This document shows, piece after piece, positions 21,517 to 43,177 of a DNA stretch of 43,177 nucleotides. The position numbers and the translations under genes were made by a program. Source of the DNA: Myxococcota bacterium (GTDB taxonomy: Bacteria; Myxococcota; XYA12-FULL-58-9; JABJBS01); contig JAYZAY010000016.1 of NCBI GenBank assembly GCA_036339465.1, forward strand, positions 1 to 43,177. Reading direction: 5' to 3'. A model generated the notes under the pieces. That model had not been told where the DNA came from. It ran no database searches and worked only from the letters and a program-made list of their open reading frames with translations. The stretch's first letter is position 1. Each line of letters starts with the position of its first letter.

Positions 21517-21726
21517 TATCAAATTTTGATGCCTAAAGGTTCAAAATCCCTATTTAGGCACAAGAAGGTATTTTACTGGCTCCCATAGGAGGACCGACTC
21601 TCAAATTATCCGGACCAAGCCCGCTCGCCAGGCCCCTATGGCTTTAGCCCGAATTGAGGCTCCTTTTGGAGCCAATAAAAAAGCCAATACTGTGACCTTA
21701 AGCTCGCCACATAAACAAACAAGGCT

Positions 21727-22556: not shown

Positions 22557-22624
22557 TCAAATAAACGGCGGTGGGTGTTTTGAGATCTCAATAAGGGCTC
22601 TCTGATCTTAGTCTTCTGTTTATT

Positions 22625-24826: not shown

Positions 24827-26092
24827 TTAGCCACCTTCCCGGTGATGGGGATAGTTCTCGGGCGTGGGCGGTAGATTCAGAATCTCTTCGGGATACTTTT
24901 CAGCCAGGAAAGTGATGATATCTTTGACGGATATAATTTCCAGAGCATCGTCGTTAACATCCAAAAGGGGAATGTGCCTGAAACCACCTAACTGCATGCG
25001 ATTAATGGCGAATGCAAGTGGATCAACGGCATGCAGATACTCGGGGTTTGTAGTCATGTAGTCATCGACGACCGCGCAGTCGAGATTGATGTCTTCCCCT
25101 ATAACTTTCATGAGAAAATCACGCTCGGTCATAATCCCTTTAAGTCGTGAATCTTGTTTCACTAGGAGGCAGCCAATATTGTTTTCCTTGAGCACAAAGA
25201 TAGCCTTTCTCAGAGAAGTTCCCGATTCAACGGTGATGGCAGTAGATGGTTGCAGTTCTGTGATAGGACATTTGAACATTAATGTTGAAGCTTCGGAATA
25301 TATATTCACGAGCTCGGTGAGTACGCGTACGAGCAGCTCACGAGCGTGGGATCTGGCATGGGCTTGATCGGCAATGTTTACATCGTCGATGTTTTTTTCA
25401 AGCGCATTAAAATAATAAGACAACGCGTCTTCTCCGCGACCGCCCGTTTTCGAAATCGAACGGGCAAGTCGTTTGATCTCTTCGGTTGTATCACTAAGAG
25501 AATAACCATTGTTTAAGAATGAGGCGTATTCTTTGCTAATCTCACTATTTCGTGAGCTGTGGGCCTTAGAAACAGAGGAGAGTTCGGATCTACATTCTTC
25601 CAATTCTTCTAACCGTTCCGTTATTTGCTCGTGAAGAGATGCGTTTACTCTCTCTAACTCTTGTTGATGTTTTTGCTGGCGAAGAAAGACCTCAACTCGA
25701 CACTTTAGTATCTCGGCTTTGATAGGCTTACTAATATAATCAAAAGCACCCAAGGAATATCCCAATTCAATATCCATTTCTGAAATTCTGGCCGCACTCA
25801 TGAATATTATGGGGAGGTACTCGTGACCTGGCATGGCGCGAATCGCACTGGCTGTTGCAAACCCATTTAAGTCCGGCATATCGAGATCCAGTAGTACCAG
25901 TGACACAGCTTCTGTTTTGATACATTCTAACGCGGCTTTCCCACTGCCCGCGGTTAAAATCTTACGATGGTTATTTGTCGAATTAGAACCACCAAGAAAA
26001 GCTGAAATCTCTATCCTATTCGCTTCGGCATCATCGACGACCAGGATCGTTTCTACTATGTTTTCCTGACCGGACTCTTCTGATTCTGTCAT
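24827..26092 (-). CDS. Receiver domain - coiled coil - helical domain - CBS pair protein
   Basis: ILVVDD, LLDLDMP, DYISKP; C-terminal GCLLV, GIMTERDFL, MTTNPE, GFRHIPLL, ISVKDII. Confidence 0.9.
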   Translation of the reverse strand: MTESEESGQENIVETILVVDDAEANRIEISAFLGGSNSTNNHRKILTAGSGKAALECIKTEAVSLVLLDLDMPDLNGFATASAIRAMPGHEYLPIIFMSAARISEMDIELGYSLGAFDYISKPIKAEILKCRVEVFLRQQKHQQELERVNASLHEQITERLEELEECRSELSSVSKAHSSRNSEISKEYASFLNNGYSLSDTTEEIKRLARSISKTGGRGEDALSYYFNALEKNIDDVNIADQAHARSHARELLVRVLTELVNIYSEASTLMFKCPITELQPSTAITVESGTSLRKAIFVLKENNIGCLLVKQDSRLKGIMTERDFLMKVIGEDINLDCAVVDDYMTTNPEYLHAVDPLAFAINRMQLGGFRHIPLLDVNDDALEIISVKDIITFLAEKYPEEILNLPPTPENYPHHREGG

Positions 26093-26297
26093 AACCGGAT
26101 TGTAGTAGCTCCGAGCAAGTAGAGCAACCCGACTATTTCACAAAAAAAACTGGAGACACCTTTCCAAAATGAACCGCTTGTCATTTCAACGTGGCCTTTG
26201 ACTTCCTTCATTTTTTGGACCTATGCCAATAGAATATGTGTGTCTATGTGAGTAAGTACAAGATAGCCGGCAGAGAGCCAACCGAATAGGAGATAAA

Positions 26298-26543
26298 ATG
26301 TGGTTTATTGACGCACACGCCCACTTGACTCACGAGCAATTTAGCAACGACGCAAAAGAGGCGCTAACTCGAGGCAAAGAAACAACTCCTCCACATAATT
26401 ATGAACGTCTCGGGTCCAGCCAGCAACCACAAAAAGGTGGTGCTTTGTGAAGGCGAACCCAGGCCCTTGTCACCACCGACTTTCAAAGCCGTGCATTGGG
26501 AACAAACGCGCTGTGATAACGAATCAATTGGCTTCGGGGTTTA
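26298..26543 (+). pseudogene. tatD: TatD-family hydrolase 5' remnant
   Basis: AGGAGA RBS, then MWFIDAHAHLTHEQFSNDAKEALTRGKE (D-x-H-x-H-L). The frame stops at 26450 and a shifted frame continues HIIMNV...KKVVLCEG. Confidence 0.65.
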
Positions 26544-26716
26544 GAAATCACCACCATCAATTCCTCAATTAGGATTTGGCAATGAGTGCAAACTTAAGGT
26601 CCATCAGAGAGTCATATCAAGGGAGGTGCCCCGAGTAAAGAAGTCAAGCCAGAGCCGCGGTCAGGTCCCAAAAAAGACCTAAACCTAACGCCTCAAAGAG
26701 ACTCGAGGCCTTTTTT

Positions 26717-27184
26717 CTATTGGGTCTCAAAAAGGCTATTATCATCCAAAGCGGGTAAACCCTGCTCTCGACGCCAATCATCCCGGAGAAGACAAAGCCG
26801 CTTAAAGTGCCGACGCGCTCCTCCCACCATAAAGACAGAAGGAACACTATCGGGCCGCATGATTTCCAACAGGAACGTTCGATACCGACGCACCAGCGAA
26901 AACCGTCGCTTGCATCGGCCCAGATTTGCCCACGAAATAGAATACCATCGCTTCTCTACATACACCCAAAGCCGACCATCCTGGCCTTCCACCAACTCCA
27001 CCATGGGTAAAGGCTTGGGCCGACGCAGCACACCAAAATAACCGAACACGATCCCAGCCAGCAGAGGCATAATCATCAGCTTAAAGTCCGCGCCTCGATA
27101 AAGTAGAAACACCACCGACACCACACTCATCACGGCCAGCAAGACAGAGCTAATGGACAGCATGGCCCCCTCGGTCTTGGCCAT
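26717..27184 (-). CDS. Hypothetical membrane protein (2 TM plus soluble C-terminal domain)
   Basis: Two hydrophobic helices then a basic beta-rich region. Start uncertain (27163, 27184 or further upstream). Confidence 0.6.
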   Translation of the reverse strand: MAKTEGAMLSISSVLLAVMSVVSVVFLLYRGADFKLMIMPLLAGIVFGYFGVLRRPKPLPMVELVEGQDGRLWVYVEKRWYSISWANLGRCKRRFSLVRRYRTFLLEIMRPDSVPSVFMVGGARRHFKRLCLLRDDWRREQGLPALDDNSLFETQ

Positions 27185-27327
27185 GAAGCTATAGTAAATG
27201 GAAACCAATCGTTTTCCCTGGGGTTTGACAGTTTGACTCAAGAAAACATTTAAATGGGGTGCTGCGGTCATCATAGGAATTCTCCTGGTTGGTGAGCCAT
27301 ATCCATGGCTGAATGAGTGGATTCGAG

Positions 27328-27930
27328 TTACTTTCTGGGACCGCCTAAACCAAGGACCAGACTGGCACACGCCTCGGGCTTAGGTAGGGATTTGGCGGGG
27401 ACCCTGTTTGGCAACTCCACACAAACCTTCGTATGGAAGGCCCCCAGAATGGCAGCACCCACGGATAAGCAAAGTTCCGATTGACCGTCCCGGTCGTGGT
27501 CCTGTTGCGACACCTCAAGGTGCGCCCCAGCGCCAATACCCACGCCAACCTCCACCGTCGCCCTATCTCCCTGATACCCCACTGTGAGACGAGCCGCGTC
27601 AACTTCCGCGGCGATACCAACACTGCCACCGGTATCCTTGGCTCTAGCATGGGTGCCAATCCTTCCAGCTAAGAGATCCAAGCGTCCTGTGAACCCAATA
27701 TCCGACTCGCCAACCAACTGAAAGCCATTGCCTGCCAGTTCGGTGGAGAGCCCCACCTCGGCAGTAAAGGCCATGGACGTTGCTGACACACCGCTTGATT
27801 CAACCTCCACACGGGCGAGATTTCCGGATACCCCTATGGTTTCCATCGTGTTGGTCACTTTGAATTCCCCCACACTCCGAGAGGCAGAAGGAGAATGAAA
27901 AGCAGGGCGTTGAGAATTGACTGAGGACAT
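27328..27930 (-). CDS. Hypothetical Gly/Val/Ala-rich beta-strand protein with Ser-rich N-terminus
   Basis: 200-aa ORF with GGAG RBS and an upstream sigma54 motif. Confidence 0.75.
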   Translation of the reverse strand: MSSVNSQRPAFHSPSASRSVGEFKVTNTMETIGVSGNLARVEVESSGVSATSMAFTAEVGLSTELAGNGFQLVGESDIGFTGRLDLLAGRIGTHARAKDTGGSVGIAAEVDAARLTVGYQGDRATVEVGVGIGAGAHLEVSQQDHDRDGQSELCLSVGAAILGAFHTKVCVELPNRVPAKSLPKPEACASLVLGLGGPRK

Positions 27931-27963
27931 GATGTTACTCCGTTTCTAGATTTACCTAGGCAT

Positions 27964-27981
27964 TTGCGAAGAACGTGCCAA
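27964..27981 (-). promoter_or_regulatory. Putative sigma54 (-24/-12) promoter
   Basis: TTGGCACGTTCTTCGCAA, with GG-N10-GC spacing, about 35 nt upstream of ATG 27930. Confidence 0.65.
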
Positions 27982-29413
27982 CCTCGACGCACGGGCGAAG
28001 CTTACGTGTCAACGGAATAAATAGTGCATCCCGAGCCTATGATAAGAATAAATAAAGACCCGTAACCTCGGTAACTTACGAAAAAGAGAAACAACACTCC
28101 ACAGCCATTCGTGCACTCAAAATCAACGAGACGAACTGAGTTCGACGCCTGCCTTTTGAGTCAAGTCCCCTCCCCTCCAATAAGCTCTTCGTGGTCCACT
28201 GAACGGTTCAGCCCCTCGGTGAAACACCGATGACTTCCTTGGCCCCTCACCAACATCGCAATAAAGCCGGGAAAAGAACCACACAAAGCGCACTAACTGT
28301 CCACACCGTGCATGCCACCCGGGAGATTCAAGATTCGAAGGTGATTCTTCGTTCTTAGAAACTCTAATAAGTTAATGCTCACTGAGGAATTCTTGGAATC
28401 CCACCGCACCCAACCAACCTCTCCAATAATCCCCCCCATGTTTCTCAAAAACAGCAAAAAGCCGGTAGCGCAGCAGTAGATGAAAGAAGTACGTCCATTG
28501 GCACATAAACCGGCACAAAGGTGTTGGCTATGGGTCCTGCGGCAAATCAGAGCTCCGGCAACCTGTTACCTTAGGCAGAGTCCATGGCGCTTACATGGAA
28601 ACGTTGCCAGATATTTATGGGAGCGGCAGTGGTACCGGCCGCGCACATAAACAGCCGACCACTCTAATACCACGACCGAAATACGCCCCCCCCCCCGCCA
28701 GGCGATGCCTAGCTTACTCTGACCAAAATCTGTAAGTGGGGGCGGGAGGGCTTCCAAGTGACCTGGTGGATTTGGTAGCGTGGATTTTGCTACCAGGCGG
28801 TGGCCTATGGGCTTAAGGCAACGCTAAAATCCGCAGTTAGGACTTGCGCACCTCGCCGATGGCCCTCTAAGGGAAGGCGATTTTCTTGTTTAAGTCACTT
28901 CAAAAAGAAAGGACAGGATTGTGAAACGAAACACCCTCCTCTCTTATGGGCAAACTCATGCTCATATCCGTCTCGATATCCGCTAATTTATCCTCAAATC
29001 GCCCAACAACCAAGGACAGAAGGTGGCCCTCCAGTAGGGGTCATCGATCGCCATGACCACCGGATGAAAGCTTCGGTGCCGATATCGGGACTTTTTTGCG
29101 AATGCCGCTGGCGAGAACTCGAGACGCTTTGGATATAGATAACAAAGTTCCGAGGTTCCTAAGACCGTGGCATTCATGGTGTACCGCTGCGATTGGATGC
29201 TTGGCGCTTTGGCCTATGGCTTATGGCATTGAATCAAAACACATACTACGACAGAAGGTACCCTGCTCCCTCATCAAACAATCCCATGTAATTCGTCTCT
29301 TAACCCCCATTCAAAGAACTCGCTCCCCTCCCCCATGGAAATCTGTTTGGAAACATTCGAGATACCTTAGCCTCCCCCTAAAAACGATTGTCGGGTTTCT
29401 CTTCGGATCCGCG

Positions 29414-31717
29414 CTAAACCACTTCTTCCCTTTGAGCTCTGAAGGCTTCTTTAAGCGCCTCCTCTGCAACTCGTCCACTTGGGCTAGCCACGCCCGCAAG
29501 ACGTCGCTTCTCGGGCTCTGGGAGTTCCGAAACCCAGAGTTGGTAATCGAGATTGAACTGCTGGTGTTTTATCTGTTTGAGGCGTTGTAATTTTTTCATT
29601 TTATCTTTGAGGATGGCCTGCTCGCGGGCTTCTTCTGGGGAAATATAAGAAGCGGGCTCTGGATAGTAGCCGCCATTCTTCTTTAGCTGAGAGATTGCCC
29701 AGGTTTTTGGTTTATCGATGCCTTCGGAGTGCTCGGGGCTTCCGAGGTAGAAACCGAGATGAAACAAGCCGGCTTTGAACTCTTCGAAACTCAACTCACC
29801 GGATAAAACGAATTTGCGATAAAGGGGTAGTACATCACTTAGACCAATCAAAAATTCGGTGAGTCCTGCGCGGTCGAGGGTTTCTTTTAATGCCTCGTCA
29901 ATTTCACTGCCTGCTTTCTTGTTGTCTGTTGTATTATTATAAATACTACTAACTACTACGTTCTGAGGTTCCGTTTGGAGGTTCTGTATAAGCCGTCGTC
30001 GGTTTCCGTAGGAGGTTCCGGTTGAATCGTTGCGGAGGTTCCAATTAACGCTGAGGGCAAGTACCGTAGTGTTGGGATTAATGATCTGGTAGCGCTTCCC
30101 TTTTGAGTACCTTCCTCTGGATATTTCGGTTTCTCGGATGAGCTGGAGGCGTCGGAGTTTAAAGACTAGTTTTTTCGCAGTGGCGGTGGTGGTTGCGAGT
30201 TCTGCGGCGAGTTCGTTGTAGGTGATCCATCGGGTTCCCTTGGTGGGGTCGTCTGATTGTGCTTCTTGCTGAGCGATGTATAGGAGAACGACCTGTTCCT
30301 GTGGAGAGGCGGGAAAGAAATGGTCGGTGAGGTTCTGGTCAGGAGCTCTGAGAGGTTCCGCTTGGCTTAATGGAGACCTTGTGGTTGAGGTTTCGATTAG
30401 GCGGCTTTGAGGTTCCGGTTGTGAATGAGTACCTAGGACTGGGGAATTGGAACCTTGGGGGGGGGAAATGGTACCTGAGGCCTGAGGTACCATTTGTACA
30501 TGAGAACCTCGAAGTGGAGGTACGGTTTGAGGGGGGTGAGGTTCCGGTTGGATGGATGGAGGTCCCGATTGAATTGGCTGAGGTCCCCGTTGAATAATTG
30601 GAGGTCCTGATTGGATTTCGGAGGTCCCAGTGAGAGGTTCTGATTGGGAATGGGAACCTAAGGATGGAGGTCCTGATTGGATTGGCTGAGGTTCTCTTTC
30701 GGTGACTTGAGGTCCTGATGGGTAATCGGAGGTTCCTGTTTCGGGTTCCGATTGGATTTTCAACGTTCCAATAACGAGTTCAGAAGGCCGCTTTGAGGTC
30801 CCGCTTGGAGGTTCTGATGGAGGCAATGGATTAAGGAATGGTGGTGACGATAGATAGGACGTAGTGTGGAGAGAGTCCTCCTCCTGGGGGTGTAAGGGCG
30901 CACTCCGATGGTCGGATTTAAGACGTGAAGCCGCTGTGGGAGGGTGTTCTTGCTGAGGGGTCGGGTCGATTGGCTGTTCTGCTTGGTGGTGTGCTTCCGT
31001 GCTAAGAGGTTCCGATTGGCGGTGTGCTTCCGTGCTAAGAGGTTCCGATTGGTGGTGTGCCTCCGCGCTAAGAGGTTCCGGTTGAGGGTGGGAAGTTTTG
31101 TATGTCTCGCTTGGGCTGGGTTGGGAGGTTCTCAAAGGAGGTTCCCATAGAGGAATGCCGGAGGTCGCGGCGACGGGGCTCCGTACGGCCCCGGCTGTCA
31201 GGCGAGGTTCTGTATGGGTTTGCGAGGTTCTAATTGGAGGTTCTGTATGGGTTCCCGAGGTTCTTATTGGAGGTTCTGGTTGCCGTTGGCATGCTACTAT
31301 CGGCGAGTCTGATCCTATTAATGAGGTTCCAGTTCCAGGTTCCGATTGATTCTCTAATCTCGCAACTGAGAGATCTAGATGGCTATCTGAGATTCCGACC
31401 ACAACACCTGATTGAGCATCCGAAGGTGTACTTCGAGCGCCTGATTGAGGTCCTGAGGTTCCGATTGGAGGTCCCGATTGCGGATCGAAGGCCTTGGCTG
31501 CCGTCTCGGCAGGGGAGCCCAGCGGTTTAGGTTCTGAGTTAAGGGGCGACAGGTAGGATTCCTGATTTGAGTGAGTCGCTTCGGCTGCAGCTCGCTTGTC
31601 GAGAAGGGGAGGGGAGACAGGGAGCGACCTTCTTCCGTTGTTAAAGGCGGATTGTTGCCTTGTGGTTTTCCTAGGCCGCCGACGAGGGGTCGAGGCCATA
31701 TCTAAGTCCATCGCCAT
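29414..31717 (-). CDS. Putative replication initiator / DNA-binding protein: long Pro/Ser/Glu repeat region, winged HTH, helical C-terminal domain
   Basis: 767 aa, 19 nt downstream of parA. wHTH QEQVVLLYI...ITYNELAAELATTTATAKKLVFKLRRLQLI...GKRYQI, then an SSIYNNTT linker; dense DNA repeats inside the gene. Confidence 0.65.
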   Translation of the reverse strand: MAMDLDMASTPRRRPRKTTRQQSAFNNGRRSLPVSPPLLDKRAAAEATHSNQESYLSPLNSEPKPLGSPAETAAKAFDPQSGPPIGTSGPQSGARSTPSDAQSGVVVGISDSHLDLSVARLENQSEPGTGTSLIGSDSPIVACQRQPEPPIRTSGTHTEPPIRTSQTHTEPRLTAGAVRSPVAATSGIPLWEPPLRTSQPSPSETYKTSHPQPEPLSAEAHHQSEPLSTEAHRQSEPLSTEAHHQAEQPIDPTPQQEHPPTAASRLKSDHRSAPLHPQEEDSLHTTSYLSSPPFLNPLPPSEPPSGTSKRPSELVIGTLKIQSEPETGTSDYPSGPQVTEREPQPIQSGPPSLGSHSQSEPLTGTSEIQSGPPIIQRGPQPIQSGPPSIQPEPHPPQTVPPLRGSHVQMVPQASGTISPPQGSNSPVLGTHSQPEPQSRLIETSTTRSPLSQAEPLRAPDQNLTDHFFPASPQEQVVLLYIAQQEAQSDDPTKGTRWITYNELAAELATTTATAKKLVFKLRRLQLIRETEISRGRYSKGKRYQIINPNTTVLALSVNWNLRNDSTGTSYGNRRRLIQNLQTEPQNVVVSSIYNNTTDNKKAGSEIDEALKETLDRAGLTEFLIGLSDVLPLYRKFVLSGELSFEEFKAGLFHLGFYLGSPEHSEGIDKPKTWAISQLKKNGGYYPEPASYISPEEAREQAILKDKMKKLQRLKQIKHQQFNLDYQLWVSELPEPEKRRLAGVASPSGRVAEEALKEAFRAQREEVV
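29911..30041. other. Candidate intragenic replication origin: four GAGGTTC repeats plus adjacent AT-rich tract
   Basis: GAGGTTC at 29965, 29978, 30012, 30035 next to TTGTATTATTATAAATACTACTAACTACTA, between the wHTH and C-terminal domain coding regions. Confidence 0.5.
29965..31474. repeat. Array of about 33 co-oriented GAGGT(T/C)C heptamers (iteron-like)
   Basis: Hand-counted copies, e.g. 30538, 30559, 30580, 30601, 30621, 30634, 30667, 30688, 30709, 30729, 31204, 31224, 31237, 31257, 31270; recurrent spacings 13, 20-21 and 33 bp. Confidence 0.93.
30983..31081. repeat. 3 x 33-bp tandem repeat (SEPLS[T/A]EAH[H/R]Q) within the array
   Basis: TTGG(T/C)GGTGTGC(T/C)TCCG(T/C)GCTAAGAGGTTCCG(A/G) three times. 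Confidence 0.95.
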
Positions 31718-31736
31718 GGGTCATCTGTCCTCGAGT

Positions 31737-32858
31737 TTAAGCTGCCTGTGTTTTGCCTGACTTTTGGGTCTGAATTTCCATTAGCCGGTCAAAGAGCTCT
31801 ATAAATATCTCTCGTTGTTCCGAAGCCAGCTTATGCTTCGGTTTGTATTCTAGTAGTGATTGATTGGTGGCGAGGGCTTCTTCGTAGGCAACCGAGGACT
31901 TGATCGGATTGCCAATGATTTTTCCTTGGTATCGCCGATAATATTCCATGAGAATCTCGCGATTTAACTTTGCCGTCGCAGAGAATCTCGTGGGAATGAA
32001 TAATTGGTCGATGGACATTGATGCATCTCTTTCAAACGTTTCCAGGCACGTGTGGAATACCTCAAGGGATTTGAACATCGTAATGGAGCATTCGATGGGG
32101 GAGAGCAGGGTGCCCTGAAGTTCCCCGATGGCGTAAATGGCGCTTTGGTTTAATAGGTTCCAGGCTGGGGGTAGGTCCAGCAGGATGACATCCCAGTTGC
32201 CACTTTCTTTGAGGGGTCTTACAATTTTATCGGTTACAAATTTCTCACGATGAATCTTACCGAATAGCTCTTGGTCGACTATGGATAATTCTGGGCTGGC
32301 CGGGAGGATGCCTAAATGATTCCCGAGACTATAATCCATTTCAATGAGTGATGAGACGTCCAAGTCTGGATTACGCAGGAGATCCAGTAACCCCACCGCA
32401 CATTCAACCTGTGATTCGAGGTAACGGTCAAGTTGTGCAGAGCTACCCTCGGGATTGGGGAGGTCTTTGTTGGTGACGGTTTCCAGGCCCCAGAGTGAGC
32501 TGAGATCTGTTTGTTGATCGAGGTCTACGCAAACGGTTTTTAGGCCACCCCCGATCGCGAAAATTCGCGCCAGCTGATGAACGGTGGAGGTTTTGTAAAC
32601 ACCACCTTTCTGAGACCAGCATGCAATGACCAGTGGTTCCTTGAGACGTGACTTATCGAGGAAGCCGTGGCCTGCTTCGGCTATTTCAGGTAGTTGTGGG
32701 GTTTTCCAAACGCGCGTTGGTTGCTTGGAAACACCGCGATGTACGCGATCAGCTTTTGGGAACCTATTGGTTTCCGACTCTTCTGCCCTAAGAATGGTCT
32801 GTTTGGTTGATTCGAAATGAAATATGGCTTCTAAGTCTCGATAGAGAAAATCTCGCAT
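31737..32858 (-). CDS. parA: ParA-family partition ATPase with N-terminal (type Ia-like) extension
   Basis: Deviant Walker A QKGGVYKTS, A' VDLDQQ, ILPAS, Walker B VILLDLPP; about 75-aa N-terminal extension; AGGAGG RBS. Confidence 0.93.
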   Translation of the reverse strand: MRDFLYRDLEAIFHFESTKQTILRAEESETNRFPKADRVHRGVSKQPTRVWKTPQLPEIAEAGHGFLDKSRLKEPLVIACWSQKGGVYKTSTVHQLARIFAIGGGLKTVCVDLDQQTDLSSLWGLETVTNKDLPNPEGSSAQLDRYLESQVECAVGLLDLLRNPDLDVSSLIEMDYSLGNHLGILPASPELSIVDQELFGKIHREKFVTDKIVRPLKESGNWDVILLDLPPAWNLLNQSAIYAIGELQGTLLSPIECSITMFKSLEVFHTCLETFERDASMSIDQLFIPTRFSATAKLNREILMEYYRRYQGKIIGNPIKSSVAYEEALATNQSLLEYKPKHKLASEQREIFIELFDRLMEIQTQKSGKTQAA

Positions 32859-33829
32859 AATGCATCCCTCCTGATGTTATATAGCTGAAGCCGACGCGCA
32901 TCGACAGAACTACACTCTCACCATATGTAACCGTTAGATGTAACGCAAACGCTTTGTTATAGTTTAATGCGTATTAGCTTATGCTCTATATGATTTGTTT
33001 ATATAAGCGTAGCGATCCCTGAATGGGAAAACCCAAAAATTCAACGGTGCGTTCCGGACGCACTCTCTTAAAACAGCCACAGGACTGTCTCTGGTGGGCG
33101 CTAATGACCGTCGTAATTTCCTTCTATGCTTTTGAACAACCGGCAGCACGGACGATCGGCTTAGATATAGGGCTTTTTTGGAGGTGCCCGATTTTGGTGT
33201 TCGGAGGGTCGACGTGTAGAACAACGATCCACGTGTTGCTCCCCCCCAGCCGCCCTTACTGATCTACCAACATTTATCGACCCCTCCGTTATTACTTCGG
33301 ATGAATGCTGGAGGTTGGTGCAAAGAAAAAGGCAGGGCAAGGGGCGTAATCACACGCTATGAACAAATGCGTGGGGCTGGCACAACCATTAGACACGCTC
33401 GGATCCATTCATCGACACCGGTCAAACACTCAAGCCTGCGTCCATTGGAACAGGCAGCGAATCCCAAATATTAGGCCAAATGGCATTTTTTTCTAACGAC
33501 TGACAACCACTGGTGTTCCAAACCCCGAATGGGATTTGATTTGCGTTGTGGCGTGTCACAGTGTTGGCGATGAAAGCCCCTTTGCACGCCAAATAGAGCC
33601 GGCAAAGGCCCTCCCTTGCCTTTTTTTCAAGCAAGCCCGCGGGGGGCCAACAATCATAATAAGCCAACGCCTGGGGCAATCCTTAACCGCGCTCAGAGCT
33701 ATTGCAAAGAGGTTGATTTGGGGTCAACGAGTGGCTGCTTGCTGCCGCCGATACCCCCCCACAGGGAAAATCGGGGTCGAACACTGAGGTCGATCTGGGT
33801 CCCCAACAGGACCGAGTTCTGTGGCGGAA

Positions 33830-34306
33830 TTAGAAACCAGCTCCGACGGCCAGACCATAGACATAGGAAACATGTCCATTGGCGTAATCCACACTTGCGA
33901 CAGGACCAACCGACATTGCTCCGAAGTGTAAATCGTAGCCCACACTTCCGCGAAGCCCGAAATTCGCCTTGTCGAGATTGGTTACAACAATGACTGGAGC
34001 TACCGCGAACCGCAGGCCACCGACTGGATGAACCACCACCATCGGCCCCCCAATTAGATGGGTTTCATCAAAGAAAGCGGCATCAACCAAGACCCCAAGC
34101 CCAACGAGACCGTCCATCACCGAAAGCCGATATTCGTAGTCAGCTCCCACCGTAATCCCATGGTGAACCACGTCGTCAATGGTATGAGTCGTCGCACCGA
34201 TGAACAACGCTGCATGGCTATGGTGTGCATGAACTTCCCCAGCCTGCGCCGATCCCGTCCACAGACCAAGCAATATTACAGCTACCAATAAAGACCGTCT
34301 TCCCAT
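33830..34306 (-). CDS. Exported small outer-membrane beta-barrel-like protein with His-rich N-terminus
   Basis: Signal peptide ending AQA, HAHHSH, alternating amphipathic strands, terminal Phe (VGAGF). Confidence 0.75.
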   Translation of the reverse strand: MGRRSLLVAVILLGLWTGSAQAGEVHAHHSHAALFIGATTHTIDDVVHHGITVGADYEYRLSVMDGLVGLGVLVDAAFFDETHLIGGPMVVVHPVGGLRFAVAPVIVVTNLDKANFGLRGSVGYDLHFGAMSVGPVASVDYANGHVSYVYGLAVGAGF

Positions 34307-34695
34307 CTTCTTTTTCCTGTGTGAGATTTGGCTGTTCTCTCATGACCCATGGCTTGAGGAAACCGCAGTCTGTTACGCTCGCCCGCCAAATCCGGCCAGC
34401 CTGGATTATCCTACCTATGGTAGCGCCCGGGTTGGTAGTAAAATACATGAAAAGCGAGGGGACCTCAAATGTCGCCGATGATGCACTTCACCACTTCGTG
34501 GTCATAATTGCTCTGAAGCATCCGCGCCCTTTAGCTCGAGACATTATCGGAATGATGCCGCCGAGAGAGAAAACGATACGACTCTTTGGCCAACCTCGGA
34601 GATGCAGAGCGAGCAAGCCCAAGTGTCTGGAAGGTGCCTGCCGCTCACCGCCGGTGTCGCTTAGAATCAACGCTTTTAGAGCATTTCTTGTCTCC

Positions 34696-34890
34696 TTACG
34701 AGCCGGCGCTGCATTCCACATGGTGTGTTTGTGGAAACAAACCACGAACTAAAGTGCCTTTGCTGAGCCGGTCCCATTGCCGAAGACATCGAATCCATCG
34801 CCCAAGCGTGTTTATCATAAGCTCCCAAGCCCAACCTACGCCGTAAAGGGGAGGATGAAGAGCAGAGGCCTCAAAACGTCTACCGCCCAT
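34696..34890 (-). pseudogene. 3' remnant of RlmD/TrmA-family RNA m5U methyltransferase
   Basis: GRRFEASALHPPLYG resembles RFD.VVLDPPR.G, NTLGRW resembles TLARD, and LFPQTHHVEC resembles DMFP.THHVE. The catalytic YVSC segment is missing. Confidence 0.5.
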
Positions 34891-35797
34891 TCCTGCTTAA
34901 GGGGCGAGTCTTCGTTTCTGTGCGCCAGCGCCAGGCATATTTTTGTGCACTGATATTTATGGGAGTGAGCAGGGCTTGGGTTGCAACAAAAAGCGGATGG
35001 TTTGGCACCGGTTAATGCATTGTGCGTATGAGATTGAGGTGCTCAAACGGCCCAAATGCAAGGGTGGCATGACCAACATGTCGTTTGTTATCTTGTAGAC
35101 AGTGGCCCGTGAATATTCTCAAGTATCATGGACTTGTTGGGGACTGACGGAAACGAAGGCCTTCGAGATTTAATTAAATGGATTTTGAGTATGTGTGGGG
35201 CTGCTTAGAGACAGGGTCAAGGATTGGTTTGTTCTTTTGCAGGGTGAACTGTTCAGCGGACGATTTTTTACGGTTTGCAGATTGGGAAGCTTCTTGCGGG
35301 TGGATATACGCGAATAATGTGATTGGTTTGATGGAGGTGGTGCGTTCTCAAATAATGATTCTCAGCGAATCTATTGGTGGTTGCGGCTTCCAAGTGATGG
35401 TTTTTATCTCGTGGGTTGTCTGTGGACCTTTTTGGTTTAACCCGATGTTTTTTTGTTTTTGGTGCTTTTCTTTAAGTGACGGAGCCTAGCTATTTGGGAA
35501 TGTGAGGATTTCCAAGGATGTCGTCAGTTTGTGTATGTTGGAGGTCCTGTGGGTTGGGGAAAGTGGGCCTTATAGAGTGTGGAGACCGGTCAAACTGAAT
35601 TCCTAGAGCATAAATTAAACAAAACCTGGCCTCGACTATTCCACTGACCCCCGGCTTTTGAATAAAATAACAGGAGCGATTGCGCGGTGGAACCGATACG
35701 CATGGGGTGGGCCTTTCTATGCTTTCGGGTCTTGTAGGAGGTCCTTGGTTATCAAGGACTTAACACATAGAATGATGAGGCTATTGTAGCGTGAACA

Positions 35798-37912
35798 ATG
35801 ACTGATCAATTTGGACAGGGAAGGTTGATCGTTGGTGCTGCGTTTGGCGACTATGTCTTGGAGAAACGACTCGGTTCTGGTGGGATGGCCGAAATATTTC
35901 TGGCCCGCCGCTCCGGTTCTGAGGGGTTTCAGAGGCAGGTTGTCATTAAACGAATTCATCCACATTTGAGTGAAAATAAAGAGTTTCGGGCGATGTTTGT
36001 CGATGAGGCAAAGCTATGTGCGCAGCTTCATCATCCCAATATTGTTTCAATTTACGATTTCGACACTTATAATGGATCGTATTATATGGTCATGGAAGTT
36101 GTTGATGGTGTCGATTTAACGTCATTAATCCTGTGGGCTATTGATCAAGAACGTGTCCTTAGGACTAACGAAATTGCATTTATCGGTAGCCAAGTTGGCA
36201 GTGCACTTTCCTATACTCACAATGCTCAGGCCTCAGACGGTACGCCATTGAATATCGTCCACCGCGATATTACACCCTCCAATATCATGGTGAGTCGCTT
36301 TGGTGAGGTTAAAGTGATGGATTTCGGTATCGCAAAAGCTGCGGCTAGAATGGCTAAAACCCAAACGGGGACGCTGAAGGGTAAGTTCAGCTACATGGCG
36401 CCGGAACAAATTGAGCACAGTGTTGTGAGCAAATATACTGACCAATTTGCTTTGGGATGTGTGCTTTGGGAACTTCTAACGCTCCAAAAATTGTTTTCCG
36501 GTTGTAATGAAGCTGATGTCTTGATGAAAGTCATCAAGGGCGACGTGCCGAAGCCTTCGGAGTATGCGTCAGTTGAGAAGGGTATGGAAGACATCGTAAT
36601 GCGAGCTTTAGCGAGGAAGCCGACGAGTCGCTATGCAGATATTGGGGAGATGGCTGACGACCTGAGTCGGGTTGTTTTGGCATCGGAACGGGCGATAGAG
36701 TTGAAGTGCTTGGTCGACCAAATCATCAAGGAAACCCCAGAGGAAGAGGAAGAAGACCCCCAATTGCAGTCCCCGAAGACCAACCTCAATTATTCGGGAA
36801 ACTCCAGTCCTTCCCATCGTATGCGAAAACAGCCCAATGATTTTAGTGATTCCAGTCACCCGTTTGATTTGGAGCAAGATGAGCGGCCTGTATTGAGCAT
36901 GGAAGCGTATCCAGACGGTAAGGTGACGAGGGAGATGCCCCTTGTATCTAGTGATTCCAGTCACCCGTTTGATTTGGAGCAAGATGAGCGGCCTGTATTG
37001 AGCATGGAAGCGTATCCAGACGGTAAGGTGACGGGGGAGATGTCGCTTGCATCAGATACCGATTTATCCGTTCTAGAGAAGGATCGGGTAATGAAGGTGT
37101 CGAAGGTTGGAAAACCGACTGAAGCTTCTGTCACAAGTATGAGGGGTCTTGCCAAAGAGAGTTCCTCTGGTGAAGTGGGCCAGTTCCCAGTGAAACGCGC
37201 TCGGGGATCTGCTTTGGTTCCCAATGAAAGACGCACGAGGAAGGAAGAGTGGGCAACCTTCGCGGTTGTAGGCGTGATATTTGTGGGGGGTATGTTCTTT
37301 GCCACCCAGAATAACAGCTCGAAAACGACCATGGAGGGCAACAGTATCAACGCGGTTGAGACACCTGATATGGCTATCCAAGGTGTGGAACCTGAAACCT
37401 CGACAGCGTTATCCGGGACGAAAGTCGATGTTTCGGGGAGTGTCGACTCTGCTCGCAGAAGAGGCTCGTCCAGTCACCGGCAGGGGGATGGGGAAGTAAC
37501 CAATGAGGGTGAAGCGATGGCACCTACGCTTTCCGGAGGAGATACCTCTGAAAATGTAAGGAAGCCGTCGAGAATTGAAAGTGCTGTAAAGAAAAAAAAG
37601 GCGGTGACGCCAGCTAAAGCTCCGAGCCCAACTGTCGCAGCTCCAGCTAAAGCTAAAGCCCCGAGCCCAACTGTCGCAGCTCCAGCTAAAGCCCCTGTGG
37701 TTGCACCTCCGGGCACCTTGTCCCTACGGAAGGTAGGGCCGTGGGTGGCGGTTTACCTCAAGGGTGAAAAGTTGGGCCATACGCCCCTGCGGAATGTGGA
37801 GGTGCCCTCTGGAAAGCAGATCTTCCAGTTGGTGAACAAGGCTGCTGGCATTGATGAGCTCCTTGAGCTTGAGATTAAACCGGGAGAATTGACCCAGTAT
37901 ATTGTCCGGTAG
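35798..37912 (+). CDS. Membrane-anchored Hanks-type Ser/Thr protein kinase with PEGA-like C-terminal domain
   Basis: LGSGGMAEIF, VVIKRI, HPNIV, HRDITPSN, DFGIAK, YMAPE; TM segment WATFAVVGVIFVGGMFFA; PWVAVYLKGEKLGHTPL. Confidence 0.95.
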   Translation: MTDQFGQGRLIVGAAFGDYVLEKRLGSGGMAEIFLARRSGSEGFQRQVVIKRIHPHLSENKEFRAMFVDEAKLCAQLHHPNIVSIYDFDTYNGSYYMVMEVVDGVDLTSLILWAIDQERVLRTNEIAFIGSQVGSALSYTHNAQASDGTPLNIVHRDITPSNIMVSRFGEVKVMDFGIAKAAARMAKTQTGTLKGKFSYMAPEQIEHSVVSKYTDQFALGCVLWELLTLQKLFSGCNEADVLMKVIKGDVPKPSEYASVEKGMEDIVMRALARKPTSRYADIGEMADDLSRVVLASERAIELKCLVDQIIKETPEEEEEDPQLQSPKTNLNYSGNSSPSHRMRKQPNDFSDSSHPFDLEQDERPVLSMEAYPDGKVTREMPLVSSDSSHPFDLEQDERPVLSMEAYPDGKVTGEMSLASDTDLSVLEKDRVMKVSKVGKPTEASVTSMRGLAKESSSGEVGQFPVKRARGSALVPNERRTRKEEWATFAVVGVIFVGGMFFATQNNSSKTTMEGNSINAVETPDMAIQGVEPETSTALSGTKVDVSGSVDSARRRGSSSHRQGDGEVTNEGEAMAPTLSGGDTSENVRKPSRIESAVKKKKAVTPAKAPSPTVAAPAKAKAPSPTVAAPAKAPVVAPPGTLSLRKVGPWVAVYLKGEKLGHTPLRNVEVPSGKQIFQLVNKAAGIDELLELEIKPGELTQYIVR
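36844..37053. repeat. 105-bp in-frame tandem duplication in kinase linker
   Basis: SDSSHPFDLEQDERPVLSMEAYPDGKVT twice; copies start at 36844 and 36949 and are identical over the first ~85 nt. Confidence 0.95.
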
Positions 37913-38016
37913 CTGCGCTTTATCCAGCTTCTGGCTATCTCACGCAGATAATTGCATCGCTGACCGGAAGTGGCTAGCATGGATAGAGGTCGCTCTTAAT
38001 AGCTGGGTCACGATTG

Positions 38017-39294
38017 ATGGGAACTCTCTATCTCCTAAGTGCATGTTTATTGTTGGGGAGCCCGACTCCCGATAAAACCCTGATTATCAAGATCGGGGAT
38101 ACCATCGACGCGAACTTGGAAAAAGGGCTTCAATCTTTCCAGCAAGAGCGGGTGGAGTTTGTTTATTTACCTATTCGCGAATTGTTAGAGCAAGAGATGG
38201 GGTTTGCCTTTGATGAAAAGGTAACCGATGCGAGTCTAAAAAAATTATTTGATGATGCCCGAAACCTAGAGCAAACAACTTTCGGCAAAGAAAAGGAAAT
38301 CCAGGCCCTTCGCGAGCAAATTATTGAGGGTTACCAGAGAATTTTATGGCCATCCAGGGATAGTTTTCGGGTTATTGCTTCCACGAGTCTTGATATAGCA
38401 GCAGCTACCTTCAGCGAAGGGAAGGAAGAGTTCGCTTCGCGATTGGCTCTGCAGGCTCTCATTGATTTTGATGATCCTAAAATTGATCGGGATTATTACA
38501 ACCCCTCGGTTCAGGAATTATTTTCCGATGTCAGAAATCAACTCACGGATCGGAAACGTTCCACCGTTGAGGTGATGTCGCCTAGCCCAGGGCGGGTCTT
38601 TTATATGGGGCAGGAAATCGGCTCTGTGAATGCGGCCATCGCTATGCCCCAGGGAAAACACCGCGTGTGGTCAGCTCTTAATGAAAAACGGTCCTTGCCC
38701 CGATTGATTAAAGTACAAGATGGTCTGAAGATGGTGAATCTCGATGCGGATTTAGAGTGCCGAATTCTACTTGGGGAGAAGGTGTCTTTTCAATGTGAGG
38801 ATAATTGTCCCAAGTATCTCAGTGCTCTAGGTTCCTGGTTGAAGGTGGACCGGGTGGTGGGTATTGCGTCAATTGGCGATTCTTCAAGTTTTACGGTGTT
38901 TCAAGTGGAGATTAAGAATAATCGCTTTACCAAGTACACCTATCTACCAGGGACCCGCTATGAGGTGCTTTCGGACCCTTGGTATAAAGTGCCCATGAAT
39001 TACTCGCCCTTTGGGTTGGCTCAATTGAATCAAGGGAGAGTATTGCCAGCGGTGGCGGTGGCGCTATTGCAAGTGGGGACACTCGGGTGGCATTTACAAG
39101 CGGTTTCGTCCCATCAGTCTGCCCTTGAGGATAGGACTCTAACCCAAAGCGACCGAGAGGGGGCCCTGGCCATGCGCAATGTTTCAGCGGGACTTTTTTA
39201 TACGGCGATTTTGGCGGGGGTTGCCGAAGCGCTTATCGTTGATTGGTTGGATGATTCGGAGCCCGTTGAAGATTCGACGATTTTTCCGTGGTAG
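38017..39294 (+). CDS. Hypothetical exported protein with C-terminal hydrophobic segments, probable partner of the kinase
   Basis: About 425 aa, signal peptide-like N-terminus, PEGA-like centre (GRVFYMGQEIG...PQGKHRVW), C-terminal PFGLAQ followed by TM segments. Confidence 0.75.
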   Translation: MGTLYLLSACLLLGSPTPDKTLIIKIGDTIDANLEKGLQSFQQERVEFVYLPIRELLEQEMGFAFDEKVTDASLKKLFDDARNLEQTTFGKEKEIQALREQIIEGYQRILWPSRDSFRVIASTSLDIAAATFSEGKEEFASRLALQALIDFDDPKIDRDYYNPSVQELFSDVRNQLTDRKRSTVEVMSPSPGRVFYMGQEIGSVNAAIAMPQGKHRVWSALNEKRSLPRLIKVQDGLKMVNLDADLECRILLGEKVSFQCEDNCPKYLSALGSWLKVDRVVGIASIGDSSSFTVFQVEIKNNRFTKYTYLPGTRYEVLSDPWYKVPMNYSPFGLAQLNQGRVLPAVAVALLQVGTLGWHLQAVSSHQSALEDRTLTQSDREGALAMRNVSAGLFYTAILAGVAEALIVDWLDDSEPVEDSTIFPW

Positions 39295-39400
39295 GGAACA
39301 ATTTTCAGGGGTATTTGCATTGTAGGATTATTCTGGTGCATTTTGTTGAATATTGTATGGTTTATATTGACAGTCTACCTCGTAGCCCCGCGTTTTGTTC

Positions 39401-39787
39401 TTATTCGTTTTCTCGATAGGAACGGTGGTGTCGCAGGATGACCCACTTATGGTATAAGCGATGAACGCAGTATGGTTTAAGTGTCAAAATGGGTCTGTTG
39501 TTGTTCGCTATGATAACGATATCGATGGTCTTTTCGAAGGTTGTTACCCAGCCGTTCGCTACGACGGTTAGGGAATCTGCTTTGAATCTGTTTTCAATGG
39601 ATGCTAGTTGGATTTCAATAGAGTGAGTCTTGAGTGAAAACTGCATGATGGCAGATGTTTCTGGTTCGATGGAATAGGTGCCCACTTGGGTTTGCTCCTC
39701 AGGGGGGATGTCGGTCGAAGTAATGAATATTTTGGCGGTCCCAAAGTCCCAGTCGAGGGTGGTCGTTCCAGATAAGGTAAATTCAGA
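39401..39787 (-). pseudogene. Out-of-frame 3' continuation of the Ig-like repeat gene
   Basis: After the C6 run (G6 at 39788-39793) the shifted frame reads SEFTLSG...DFGTAKIFI...EEQTQVGTYSIEPETSAI...NNNRPI, paralogous to the in-frame repeat RFTIEK...DFGTITISI...NEQEQTVTYSVEPSSSAL...NDEPI. Confidence 0.8.
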
Positions 39788-41789
39788 GGGGGGCGTCGAT
39801 ACTTACCACGGTAATGGTTATTTGAGCCACGCTACTTTGAAGTACCCCATTTTCTTCGGTATCCCCATCGTCGGTGACGTAAAATTCAAAACCATCGTTG
39901 CCGTGGGTGTGCAAATTAGGATGATAGTACAGGCTACTCGAATTGAGTGGGAAGGGAAGAACATCGAAGGTAATGGCATGCCCGTCTGCGGTTTCGCTTA
40001 AGGTGCCTTGGTTGGGGAGGGAAGATAGATAATAACTGAGCGCCTGTATGTCTTCATCACCATCGTGGGTGACCAAGGTGATGGCTAAGGGGGTATTCTC
40101 ATGGGTTTCGAGGCTCTGACTTTTGGCGATGGGCTCGTCATTGGGCGCAGATACGGTGATGGTGAAGTTTTCCACCGTGAATTTCCCCAGGCCATCATCG
40201 GCGACGATATTTAAAGTGACGGTTCCCGATTTTGCTTCGATGGAGTGTAAGTTTAGTTTTGGTGGGGTGGTGTCGAGGGAATATTCGATAAGCGCAGAAC
40301 TAGATGGTTCCACGGAATAAGTAACCGTTTGTTCTTGTTCGTTGGTGGGCACAGCATCAGGTATAATCGAAATGGTGATTGTACCAAAATCCTCCATCAA
40401 GTCTTCAGGTTTTTCGATGGTAAAACGGGGGAGGTCGTTGATGGGAGAAACGTTAATCGTAATTTGCGCAGCGCTGCTTTCGTCAATGTCGCCTTGGTCG
40501 GTGCTCCCATTATTGGTGGCCTTAAAAGTGAAATTATCGTTGCCAAAATAGTCAGGATTGGGGAGGTAGTTGAGGCGGTCGGCGTCGAGTTGGATTGGGA
40601 GACCTGAGTCTTTGATGGCGGTGCCACCACTGCTTTTGGATAGAACGCCATGGGCGGGTAGGGCGGTCACGAAATAGTGGAGTAGCTCGTTGGCTTCGCT
40701 ATCAGCATAGGAAGCGGATAAAATTATTTCCACTTCTTTATCTTCATCAACGTCCACGTTTTGAGCTTCGGCCATGGGGGCAGCATTCACCGGATTGACG
40801 TTGATGATTATTTCCCCTGGGGCACTCGTATTCTGCCCTCCATTTTCAACACCACCAGTATCTTCCACCACGTAGAAGAAGTTGATGGGGCCGGCGTGGC
40901 TCGTCTCGGCGCTATAGTTAAGGTTGACAGAGTTGAGAACTAAGGGAAGTTGTTGGTTCAAAATGGGAGATTGTTCACCATCCTGAGTGAGTGTGCCAGG
41001 ACTTGGCAGCGATTTGAGAATATAGATGAGTGTTTGTTCTTCGTCTTCGTCTCCGTCGTCTCCGGTGAGGGTTATTTCAACGCTTTCACCCTTGTTGACT
41101 TCCACGGTTTGGTCTACTGCGTTGGGGGCGTCGTTTACCGGTGTGACGAGGATGGTGATGGTTCCCAGTTCGCTATCGTCTAATTTTAAGGCGCTTGGAG
41201 GTCCTACTCGCTTATTTTGCTTGACCACAAAAGTGAAAGTCTGTTCCTCGACACTGTTTGGGTGGGTCTGGAAAAAGATTGTTGGTGGGTCATTCCGTAT
41301 GTCTAAGGGTATTCGATTTTCGATGGGACCACTCTCGCTTATACGCAGGGAACCTGATTGGGGGTATGAGCGCAAGGAACAAAAGGTGTTGATTATTGAG
41401 TTGTCGGAGACTTCGGCCTTCAGGTAGATGGCGGTCGAAATGTCTTCAATGACGGTGACACTTTCCGATATTGCTAGCAAGGTGGTTTGGGATGTTTGAC
41501 CCGTGCTGTCTTCTGCTGACTGACTACCATCGGTGTTGACCGATTCGGATTCATCGATTTGAGACCCGGTCATGGTTGGATCGGTGTTGGTCGATTCGGA
41601 TTCATCGACTTGAGACTCGGTGTCGGTCGATTCGGATTCATCGATTTGAGACTCGGTCATGGTAGAATCGGTGTTGATCGCTTCGGATTCATCGAATTGA
41701 GGCGCGGTTATGGTAGAAAAACAGGCACCGGGAGAGAAAAGAACAAACCCTAGGAGATATAATTGGGGTCTCAGTCGGTAGAACAGCAT
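39783..41789 (-). CDS. Lipoprotein with tandem cadherin-like/bacterial Ig-like repeats (truncated by frameshift)
   Basis: Lipobox-like PGAC; repeats bounded by PVNDAP, PVNAAP, PINDLP, APNDEP; YLPNPDYFGNDNFTF. Confidence 0.88.
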   Translation of the reverse strand: MLFYRLRPQLYLLGFVLFSPGACFSTITAPQFDESEAINTDSTMTESQIDESESTDTESQVDESESTNTDPTMTGSQIDESESVNTDGSQSAEDSTGQTSQTTLLAISESVTVIEDISTAIYLKAEVSDNSIINTFCSLRSYPQSGSLRISESGPIENRIPLDIRNDPPTIFFQTHPNSVEEQTFTFVVKQNKRVGPPSALKLDDSELGTITILVTPVNDAPNAVDQTVEVNKGESVEITLTGDDGDEDEEQTLIYILKSLPSPGTLTQDGEQSPILNQQLPLVLNSVNLNYSAETSHAGPINFFYVVEDTGGVENGGQNTSAPGEIIINVNPVNAAPMAEAQNVDVDEDKEVEIILSASYADSEANELLHYFVTALPAHGVLSKSSGGTAIKDSGLPIQLDADRLNYLPNPDYFGNDNFTFKATNNGSTDQGDIDESSAAQITINVSPINDLPRFTIEKPEDLMEDFGTITISIIPDAVPTNEQEQTVTYSVEPSSSALIEYSLDTTPPKLNLHSIEAKSGTVTLNIVADDGLGKFTVENFTITVSAPNDEPIAKSQSLETHENTPLAITLVTHDGDEDIQALSYYLSSLPNQGTLSETADGHAITFDVLPFPLNSSSLYYHPNLHTHGNDGFEFYVTDDGDTEENGVLQSSVAQITITVVSIDAPL
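41529..41700. repeat. Four acidic Q(I/V/F)DESE repeats in the lipoprotein N-terminal tether
   Basis: TTCGGATTCATCGA at 41544, 41595, 41631, 41682 (spacing 51/36/51). Confidence 0.9.
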
Positions 41790-43175: not shown

Positions 43176-43177
43176 TG

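Follow-up and report, generated by a model that had tools for sequence, protein, structure and literature searches.

What does a switch of strand composition beside a partition-type gene pair tell about the replicon that carries it? The question is raised by contig JAYZAY010000016.1 of the Myxococcota bacterium assembly GCA_036339465.1 (102 contigs, 4.17 Mb, 92.8% complete), hereafter C16, which in its entirety makes up the window analyzed here (43,177 nucleotides). At about 29.4 kb its + strand changes from C/A-rich to G/T-rich, next to two minus-strand genes that lie 19 nt apart and point towards the flip, namely parA and a gene (29414-31717) for a protein of 767 amino acids (aa) with a predicted winged helix. 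The flip in strand composition is real. We assign a probability of roughly 0.6 to its marking the origin from which a long-resident, plasmid-like secondary replicon (a large plasmid or chromid) is replicated bidirectionally, and it is from the data below that we infer both the activity of this origin and the extrachromosomal state.

A flip at about 29.4 kb had been described in an earlier note, by eye and from spot counts, and the quantitative profiles bear it out. In a 1-kb profile, GC skew was negative and AT skew positive over most of 1-29.5 kb; GC skew was then above zero at 29.5-33 kb, fell below zero at 33-35 kb and remained positive from there to the contig end. Cumulative GC skew had a single V-shaped minimum at 29,512, i.e. 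99 bp inside the 3' end of the 767-aa gene, with a depth of 985. No other of the 102 contigs has so deep a V, the runner-up being contig C23 with 694, and in block shuffles of the window (500, 1000 and 2000 bp) the observed depth was reached in 0 of 2000 each. The keto-skew minimum was at 29,502. When the curve was restricted to intergenic and four-fold sites, the check that the note had proposed, the minimum was found at 29,489, and at 29,495 once the coding-strand effect was subtracted; it neither moved elsewhere nor disappeared after correction for gene orientation. The switch is of the origin type, from C to G, and thus a V and not a terminus-type peak. The parts of the window referred to below are the following.

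1-29413, no strand: left arm, + strand C/A-rich, with GC skew -0.088, AT skew +0.054 and a corrected four-fold skew of about -0.14
27931-29413, no strand: candidate origin region, 1.48 kb of non-coding DNA just downstream of the parA/winged-helix operon, ending at the skew minimum
29414-30355, minus strand: conserved C-terminal 313 residues of the 767-aa protein, with winged helix, S/T-rich linker and helical domain
30356-31717, minus strand: N-terminal half of the 767-aa protein, of low complexity and rich in P/S/Q/E/T, which contains internal repeats and has a C-rich coding strand
31737-32858, minus strand: parA, a ParA/Soj-type ATPase gene
32859-34900, no strand: reversed-skew patch, mostly non-coding, with one likely gene at 33830-34306 (minus strand)
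34901-43177, no strand: right arm proper, + strand G/T-rich, with four-fold skews that match the genome-wide leading and lagging values
34961-35262, no strand: copy of a dispersed repeat from a 100-300-bp family

Genes on C16 were called as greedy longest open reading frames (ORFs), and sites were divided into intergenic, four-fold third positions and codon positions 1+2, by gene strand. Four-fold skew on the + strand of the left arm was -0.265 in + strand genes (n=737) and -0.007 in minus-strand genes (n=1174), and on the right arm +0.114 (n=404) and +0.403 (n=559), respectively. The replication-type term accordingly flips from about -0.14 to +0.26 across C16, while the coding-strand term stays steady at about -0.13 to -0.15. 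At the level of single genes, the orientation-corrected four-fold skew had a mean of -0.134 for 23 left-arm genes, compared to +0.127 for 7 right-arm genes (Mann-Whitney p=0.004), and intergenic skew went from -0.094 to +0.065. Gene orientation is mixed on either side of the flip. The single parts that had been singled out by eye behave in the same manner. Spacers at 28.1-28.5 and 29.2-29.5 kb are C-rich and the gene at 8347-9663 follows the composition of the left arm (four-fold skew -0.38). On the right, the spacer at 35.0-35.6 kb is G-rich and four-fold skew is +0.37 in parA and +0.47 in the Ig-like gene. A local exception had been pointed out at 33.4-34.8 kb, and skew is indeed mostly negative at 33.2-34.9 kb.

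The skew of the host is unusually strong and uniform across the assembly, with absolute values of 0.10-0.18 and a monotonic course in most contigs. Genome-wide, co-oriented genes had a four-fold skew of +0.085 on the G-rich strand and opposed genes one of +0.415; intergenic skew was +0.143, and the four-fold sites gave a replication-type term of about 0.25 and a coding-strand term of about -0.165. Since the genes are almost evenly split, 1381 of 2664 (51.8%) being co-oriented with the G-rich strand and 1283 opposed, there is little orientation bias, and we regard the genome skew as mutational and not orientation-driven. A strong skew was also seen in one sampled relative of the same family (genome G003, contig C177). 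The four-fold skews of the right arm of C16 are essentially equal to the genome-wide values, and the tetranucleotide distances of its two arms fall between the 4.5th and the 71st percentile of genome chunks, which is ordinary for the bin. Both observations are in keeping with long residence in this host. The earlier note had spoken of a long-standing origin rather than a recently inserted plasmid; the first half of this agrees with the host-like skew and tetranucleotides, while the contrast with a plasmid is not upheld, as the chromosomal origin genes lie on another contig, the parA module is of a type found on plasmids and integrative elements, and C16 is accessory DNA (see below for all three).

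Where exactly the breakpoint lies depends on how a patch of about 2 kb is treated. A single-breakpoint likelihood scan, run on a gene set in which three doubtful ORFs at 33.6-35.5 kb had been replaced by 33830-34306 (minus strand), which looks more like a gene, and one at 28.8-29.1 kb dropped, is two-peaked because of the reversed skew at 32.9-34.9 kb, and the minimum from intergenic sites alone is at 34,842. We favor 29.4-29.5 kb, as the four-fold skews of parA (+0.37) and the 767-aa gene (+0.42) fit those expected of lagging-strand genes on the right arm (+0.415, compared to about -0.085 on the left arm), and as the same geometry recurs elsewhere.

The gene pair at the flip was characterized with domain models and predicted structures. 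ParA matches the Pfam models AAA_31 (2.9e-17) and CbiA (1.6e-10) and has the deviant Walker A motif KGGVYKT, its matches to the NCBIfam partition models RepA, ParA and SopA being all below cut-off. The 767-aa protein consists of about 450 low-complexity residues, rich in P/S/Q/E/T, followed by 313 conserved ones; it had no match above cut-off in Pfam or NCBIfam, i.e. no Rep family and no ParB/Srx or ribbon-helix-helix domain. In structural models the conserved part contains a predicted winged helix (VIA Z up to 10.6 to ArsR/MarR-type chains) and a helical C-terminal domain, modelled at pLDDT 95.3 from a 78-sequence alignment. No structural match of the helical domain reached significance (VIA Z at most 5.3, lowest Foldseek E 1.2; both within noise), and a solved-structure profile search combined with Foldseek and VIA on both models matched only the winged helix; the structure searches with the C-terminal domain thus show neither a new nor a known fold. 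Matches to Cdc6/Orc1 winged helices were faint (E 0.014-0.09; Cdc6_C E 0.093), and that to the DnaD domain (VIA Z 4.8) was within noise. Among 40 relatives of the protein, helix-turn-helix matches occurred below cut-off only, with HTH_36 in three of them (best 4.4e-05, 23.6 bits against a cut-off of 25). Language-model look-alikes, which we treat as leads only, were HTH_36 clusters, one cluster with RP-C in 19% of its members and a DnaD_N cluster.

Two roles for the 767-aa protein are about equally likely, namely that of ParA's centromere-binding partner and that of replication initiator, and one protein might do both. A ParB-like adaptor is suggested by the gene order, by the tight coupling to parA, by the lack of another candidate partner gene and by the long N-terminus, which is disordered and in relatives carries a short conserved motif. 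In favor of an initiator are the winged helix with its HTH_36, RepC and DnaD-like leads, a dnaN neighbor in one relative, the lack of a recognised Rep protein on a related Bdellovibrio plasmid (see below) and the skew minimum at the 3' end of the gene.

The family to which the 767-aa protein belongs is sparse, and no Pfam or NCBIfam model captures it. A word-indexed homologue search with residues 455-767 gave no match, while an exhaustive profile search among 1.84 billion cluster representatives found 262 at E<=0.001, 74 at <=1e-10 and 16 at <=1e-30; ten clusters that were looked up carried no name or 'hypothetical protein'. The family was present in two of 41 close-to-distant relatives and in three of 401 sampled genomes of the phylum, including the present one. 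A locus search with a 4-sequence alignment identified no locus in genome contigs and five in metagenome contigs. Directly upstream of the winged-helix gene, at 0-19 nt, parA was found in all six loci with upstream DNA (C16, contig C3 of the same assembly, genome contig L023 and metagenome contigs), a count that leaves out three loci starting at the winged-helix gene itself.

Conjugation genes (coupling protein, MobA relaxase or VirB2/VirB4) were identified in three of the five relatives' loci scanned. The neighbors are a type IV coupling protein, an HNH nuclease, a tyrosine integrase and Fic in L023, VirB2 and VirB4 in L026, and a methylase, a helicase, a coupling protein, a MobA/MobL relaxase and a toxin-antitoxin pair in L027. 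L029 has an insertion sequence (IS) element with transposase genes and an FRG-domain protein and is devoid of conjugation genes, and in L025 a full-length paralogue of the DNA polymerase III beta-clamp gene (dnaN, 964-2166) is found directly upstream of the parA/winged-helix pair. Judging from these neighbor genes, the module is one of plasmids and integrative elements. A side observation concerns the Piscirickettsia salmonis plasmid NZ_CP039095.1 (19983-25655), where two ParA genes, about 33% identical to the C16 ParA, are each followed by a 'hypothetical protein' (478 and 210 aa).

The only second module in the genome is the one on C3, with parA at 30904-31959 and a 1003-aa partner, about 32% identical, at 31962-34973. 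Skew on C3 is -0.15 over 30.9 kb ending at the 3' end of the partner gene, near zero for 5.5 kb and positive from 40.5 kb, with the minimum at 41,129 (raw) or 40,447 (neutral sites). In the longer foreign loci, skew upstream and downstream of the module was -0.007 and +0.065 (L027), and -0.012 and +0.056 (L023).

A closed replicon with a comparable arrangement was found by way of ParA. The best plasmid match of the C16 ParA (31% identity over 99% of the query) is on the complete circular plasmid pBdHAGR1 of Bdellovibrio sp. HAGR004 (AP029177.1, 62,183 bp), where HAGR004_40690 (ParA) is followed after 15 nt by HAGR004_40700, a 526-aa 'hypothetical protein'. As on C16, ParA precedes a protein with a basic N-terminus, tandem low-complexity repeats, a winged-helix-like middle and a helical C-terminus, and the skew minimum is at the 3' end of the gene. 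Detrended cumulative skew is lowest at 17,444, i.e. 289 bp before the end of the 526-aa gene (17,733), and the opposite, terminus-type switch is also present on this closed plasmid, with a maximum at 44,171, about 43% of the circle away; the range was reached in 6 of 1000 block shuffles. Unlike C16, the plasmid has a weak skew (about 0.05-0.09), the similarity of the partner protein is marginal, and all genes there are annotated as hypothetical. Against the family profile, the 526-aa protein aligns collinearly over 273 columns (hhalign probability 45%, E 2.2e-4), and its membership in the 767-aa family is suggestive on sequence grounds and not secure. No classical Rep domain was identified in the 58 pBdHAGR1 coding sequences scanned, a set that did not include the 10 annotated IS genes. 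Around the module on this plasmid there are genes for SSB, for a KfrA_N protein and for an integrase, as well as two toxin-antitoxin pairs and what remains of a type IV secretion system. A literature search on the strain name listed no paper mentioning it among its matches.

Taken together, we propose that C16 is part of a plasmid-like replicon of at least 43 kb, or of about 59 kb or more if the arms are equal, the replication of which would start within 27.9-29.5 kb, at the 3' end of the parA/winged-helix operon or just past it, and proceed in both directions. The strong replication-linked mutation bias of the host (about 0.25 in four-fold GC skew) would then have been imprinted on the two arms in opposite senses, giving the V. 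With both arms biased, this requires long replication from the flip point in this host or its close kin. Both parA and the 767-aa gene would be transcribed towards the origin, and the winged-helix protein may bind DNA near it, either as ParA's centromere-binding partner or as initiator.

That C16 is accessory was deduced from DNA matches in five genomes of the same family (given in the order G003, G005, G001, G004, G002). Chromosomal controls had 7, 11, 9, 11 and 15 matches (origin region on contig C30) and 11, 9, 14, 22 and 6 (contig C62), many of them collinear on one contig. For C16 the numbers were 2, 4, 3, 4 and 3 (1-20000) and 1, 0, 2, 1 and 0 (23178-43177), and for C3:1-20000 they were 2, 0, 2, 2 and 0, most matches of the module contigs being short and scattered; compared to the controls, this marks both C16 and C3 as accessory DNA. 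The one family relative with the left-arm aminotransferase (genome G003, on the contig mentioned above) shared no further gene with C16 within 41 kb.

A number of observations weigh against the proposed plasmid-like replicon. C16 is open at both ends, an overlap of its ends having been looked for and not found, and no terminus-type peak is seen on it. The replication-type term of the left arm (about -0.14) is about half the genome-wide strength. About one third of the rise falls within the 767-aa gene and derives partly from Pro/Ser/Gln codons. The likelihood scan has one peak at 29.4 kb (log-likelihood difference, dlnL, 55.4) and another at 34.8-35.0 kb (59.1). The short metagenome loci all have their skew minimum 444-898 bp short of the gene end, where a C-rich low-complexity part meets the conserved part. 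Being located at this boundary, such minima may be intragenic and carry little weight. Classical origin features are also wanting. No repeat family of more than two copies, such as iterons would form, was found at 27.8-29.6 kb, no AT-rich unwinding block at 27.9-29.5 kb (GC content 40-60% per 100 bp) and no DnaA-box cluster, with 13 matches in the window compared to 9.4 expected and one, with one mismatch, in the candidate region. Among the C16 proteins there are no relaxase, type IV secretion or toxin-antitoxin genes. The conserved domain had no tblastn match in 72,556 plasmids, and the link to the 526-aa protein of pBdHAGR1 is weak. Lastly, a V on C23 is situated amid pilin and fatty-acid genes and comes without a replication gene.

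Further searches gave no iterons at 32.8-35.9 kb, no parS-like repeats, no k-mer motif common to the regions downstream of the C16 and C3 modules, and no Rfam (gathering thresholds) or tRNA match in the whole window. NCBIfam scans of 17 otherwise unnamed C16 proteins were also negative. The candidate origin spacer contains a poly-C run (28687-28699), with C-to-T differences at 28688-28691 in one public sequencing run.

The alternative that fares best, while still being unlikely in our view, is that C16 is chromosomal and that the flip marks where an inverted segment, or an integrated mobile element carrying the parA module, begins or ends, with no origin firing there. Skew flips without such a module do occur in this genome. 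A uniform flip detector (5 kb on each side, |skew|>0.06, 3.18 Mb scanned) called V-type switches on C16, C21, C23 (two calls, 2 kb apart) and C68, and peak-type switches on C21, C30, C32, C68 and C90. On C21 (23.5/32.5 kb) and C68 (17.1/31.4 kb) a V is paired with a peak, 9 and 14 kb apart, in contigs that are otherwise monotonic, and these pairs are probably inverted or inserted segments. The unpaired V on C23 (about 9.6-11.6 kb, with a neutral-site skew going from about -0.2 to +0.28), located between a 383-aa gene and a short-chain dehydrogenase, is possibly an inversion breakpoint. As the flips on C21, C23 and C68 come without a replication gene, a V alone is no proof of an origin, and the weight lies on its coincidence with the module, repeated on C3 and pBdHAGR1. 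Other points in favor of a chromosomal edge are the right arm, which is just 13.7 kb long to the contig end, the tyrosine integrase adjoining the related module L023 and the lack of conjugation genes on C16. Against it stands that, with five V calls on four contigs in 3.18 Mb, the odds of a V within 1.5 kb of a given module are an estimated 1 in 200, and that the C3 module and the complete plasmid pBdHAGR1 show the same geometry. Furthermore, no tRNA, integrase or flanking repeat was found at 29.4 kb, accessory DNA makes up both arms and not one, and the four-fold skew of the right arm is fully host-like.

Far less probable is an assembly or binning artefact, in which two unrelated pieces differing in the sign of their skew were fused near 29.4 kb or C16 stems from another organism. 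This is a metagenome-type bin of 102 contigs, and the pieces from public runs are a few hundred bases each, none of those listed spanning the flip at 29.4 kb. However, the stretch is contained in public marine metagenome runs of several studies, two of which, X1 and X2 (from two studies), cover 30 of 30 bins over 22.0-41.9 kb with even depth and no alternative joints, and with at least 99% identity in 52 of 59 and 46 of 51 pieces, respectively; two of the four public runs left bins uncovered, and these gaps were given no weight. The flip is inside or beside an intact operon that has homologues elsewhere, the tetranucleotides are typical of the bin, and other contigs of the bin have gene paralogues of C16 as well as copies of its dispersed repeat.

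We give next to no credence to the flip being the chromosome's own oriC. It is the deepest V in the assembly, and only 1.7-3.7 kb is present to the left of the dnaA region on C30, where a V would be poorly visible. Nevertheless, dnaA, dnaN and a recF-like gene are on the minus strand of C30 (58-3740), with rnpA, yidC and jag (4461-7736) running divergently from them, and this recF-dnaN-dnaA | rnpA-yidC-jag arrangement places the chromosomal origin there and not on C16. Skew on C30 is positive from about 1.7 kb on, and all five relatives of the family have its origin region in collinear form, a conservation that C16 lacks. The absence of a DnaA-box cluster and the rarity of the module among the sampled genomes of the phylum also argue against an oriC. 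The nearest public relatives of the DnaA protein are found in a genome labelled 'uncultured Bdellovibrionales' (76% identity) and in one labelled 'Myxococcales' (46%), and we regard the assignment of the organism to a phylum as tentative.

Just as improbable is the absence of any replication signal, with the V being due to gene orientation and amino-acid composition, chiefly of the Pro/Ser/Gln-rich minus-strand 767-aa gene: its N-terminal half gives the strongest local G excess on the + strand (up to +0.5 per 100 bp), it contributes 314 of the 985 units of rise (parA 62, the patch -85 and the part beyond 34.9 kb 694), and the minima of the short loci fall at the low-complexity junction, but the V is kept when the operon is masked (depth 696, minimum 34,842) and the signal persists after correction for both factors, with four-fold sites flipping in genes of both orientations, intergenic sites flipping as well and gene orientation being mixed on both sides.

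Returning to the plasmid-like replicon, a more far-reaching version of it strikes us as doubtful. Here, the parA and disordered winged-helix pair would be an undescribed two-gene replication-and-partition cassette in which a single protein combines the roles of initiator and centromere adaptor of ParA and the origin is located at or within the 3' end of that protein's own gene, and C16 and C3 would be two co-resident, host-adapted, chromid-like replicons.

Among the remaining features of the window, the reversed-skew patch (32859-34900) is probably a recent insertion or inversion. Its ORF at 33830-34306 encodes 158 aa, rich in Gly/Val/Ala/His and with a signal-peptide-like start; its four-fold skew of -0.28 is opposite to that of its neighbors, and it is likely a recent arrival. 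The dispersed repeat to the right of the patch has copies, 68-83% identical, at C3:29625-29918, C22:26084-26345, C53:10-245, C84:415-566 and C7:19566-19661, as well as in four places on C54 and three on C73. A copy is situated upstream of each parA module (about 1 kb upstream on C3), and another near a small V on C22. The repeat matched no Rfam family and could be a promoter element, a miniature inverted-repeat transposable element or a small RNA. On the left arm, within 20554-22581, the flagellin gene (21822-22556) and its upstream neighbor have paralogues on C11 (84% DNA identity) and C85 (74%), i.e. the accessory contig carries copies of chromosomal motility genes. A GC-poor island at 13500-15000 (0.42 compared to 0.49) contains a DUF4143/AAA_14 ATPase, a family that is also found directly after the winged-helix gene in metagenome locus L026. 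In the Ser/Thr kinase gene at 35798-37912, a tandem duplication of 105 bp (96% identical, 36844-37053) repeats an acidic segment of 35 residues.

The interest of the locus lies in a sparse protein family that is paired with parA, often on conjugative elements, and is found at or beside the skew minimum on three replicons, including one closed plasmid. According to a 2024 paper, only two plasmid-bearing organisms are known in the Myxococcota. If the 767-aa protein is an initiator or a new centromere-binding partner, it would help to identify and to construct plasmids in predatory and myxobacteria-like lineages, for which few plasmids are known. Skew at the level of contigs can, moreover, by itself reveal secondary replicons in a metagenome bin with strong skew.

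Three known systems invite comparison. Type I parA-parB-parS loci are resembled in that C16 has a ParA with a deviant Walker A motif, a DNA-binding partner within 19 nt that has a long disordered N-terminus, and a non-coding stretch thereafter; they differ in that the partner family on C16 comprises winged-helix proteins of 500-1000 residues with an unmatched helical C-terminus, lacking ParB/Srx and ribbon-helix-helix domains. In the repABC cassettes of alphaproteobacterial plasmids, the partition genes and the initiator RepC form one operon, with the origin inside repC. The C16 operon differs from these in having two genes and not three, no Pfam RP-C match and no AT-rich block in the gene, and is similar in combining a partition ATPase and a winged-helix protein, with the skew minimum inside or at the 3' end of the last gene. 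Theta plasmids, finally, show a V-shaped skew, and the strengths of plasmid and host skew are correlated (r=0.791), as reported by Arakawa, Suzuki & Tomita (2009, PMC2804667). Compared to the shift points described there, C16 is not closed, has no recognised Rep gene or iteron origin, and reaches half the host strength on its left arm; like them, its V is situated beside maintenance genes and its strength is like that of the host chromosome. A skew flip at a plasmid origin is textbook behavior and the phenomenon is in this sense ordinary, whereas the gene pair at its centre is an uncharacterised variant.

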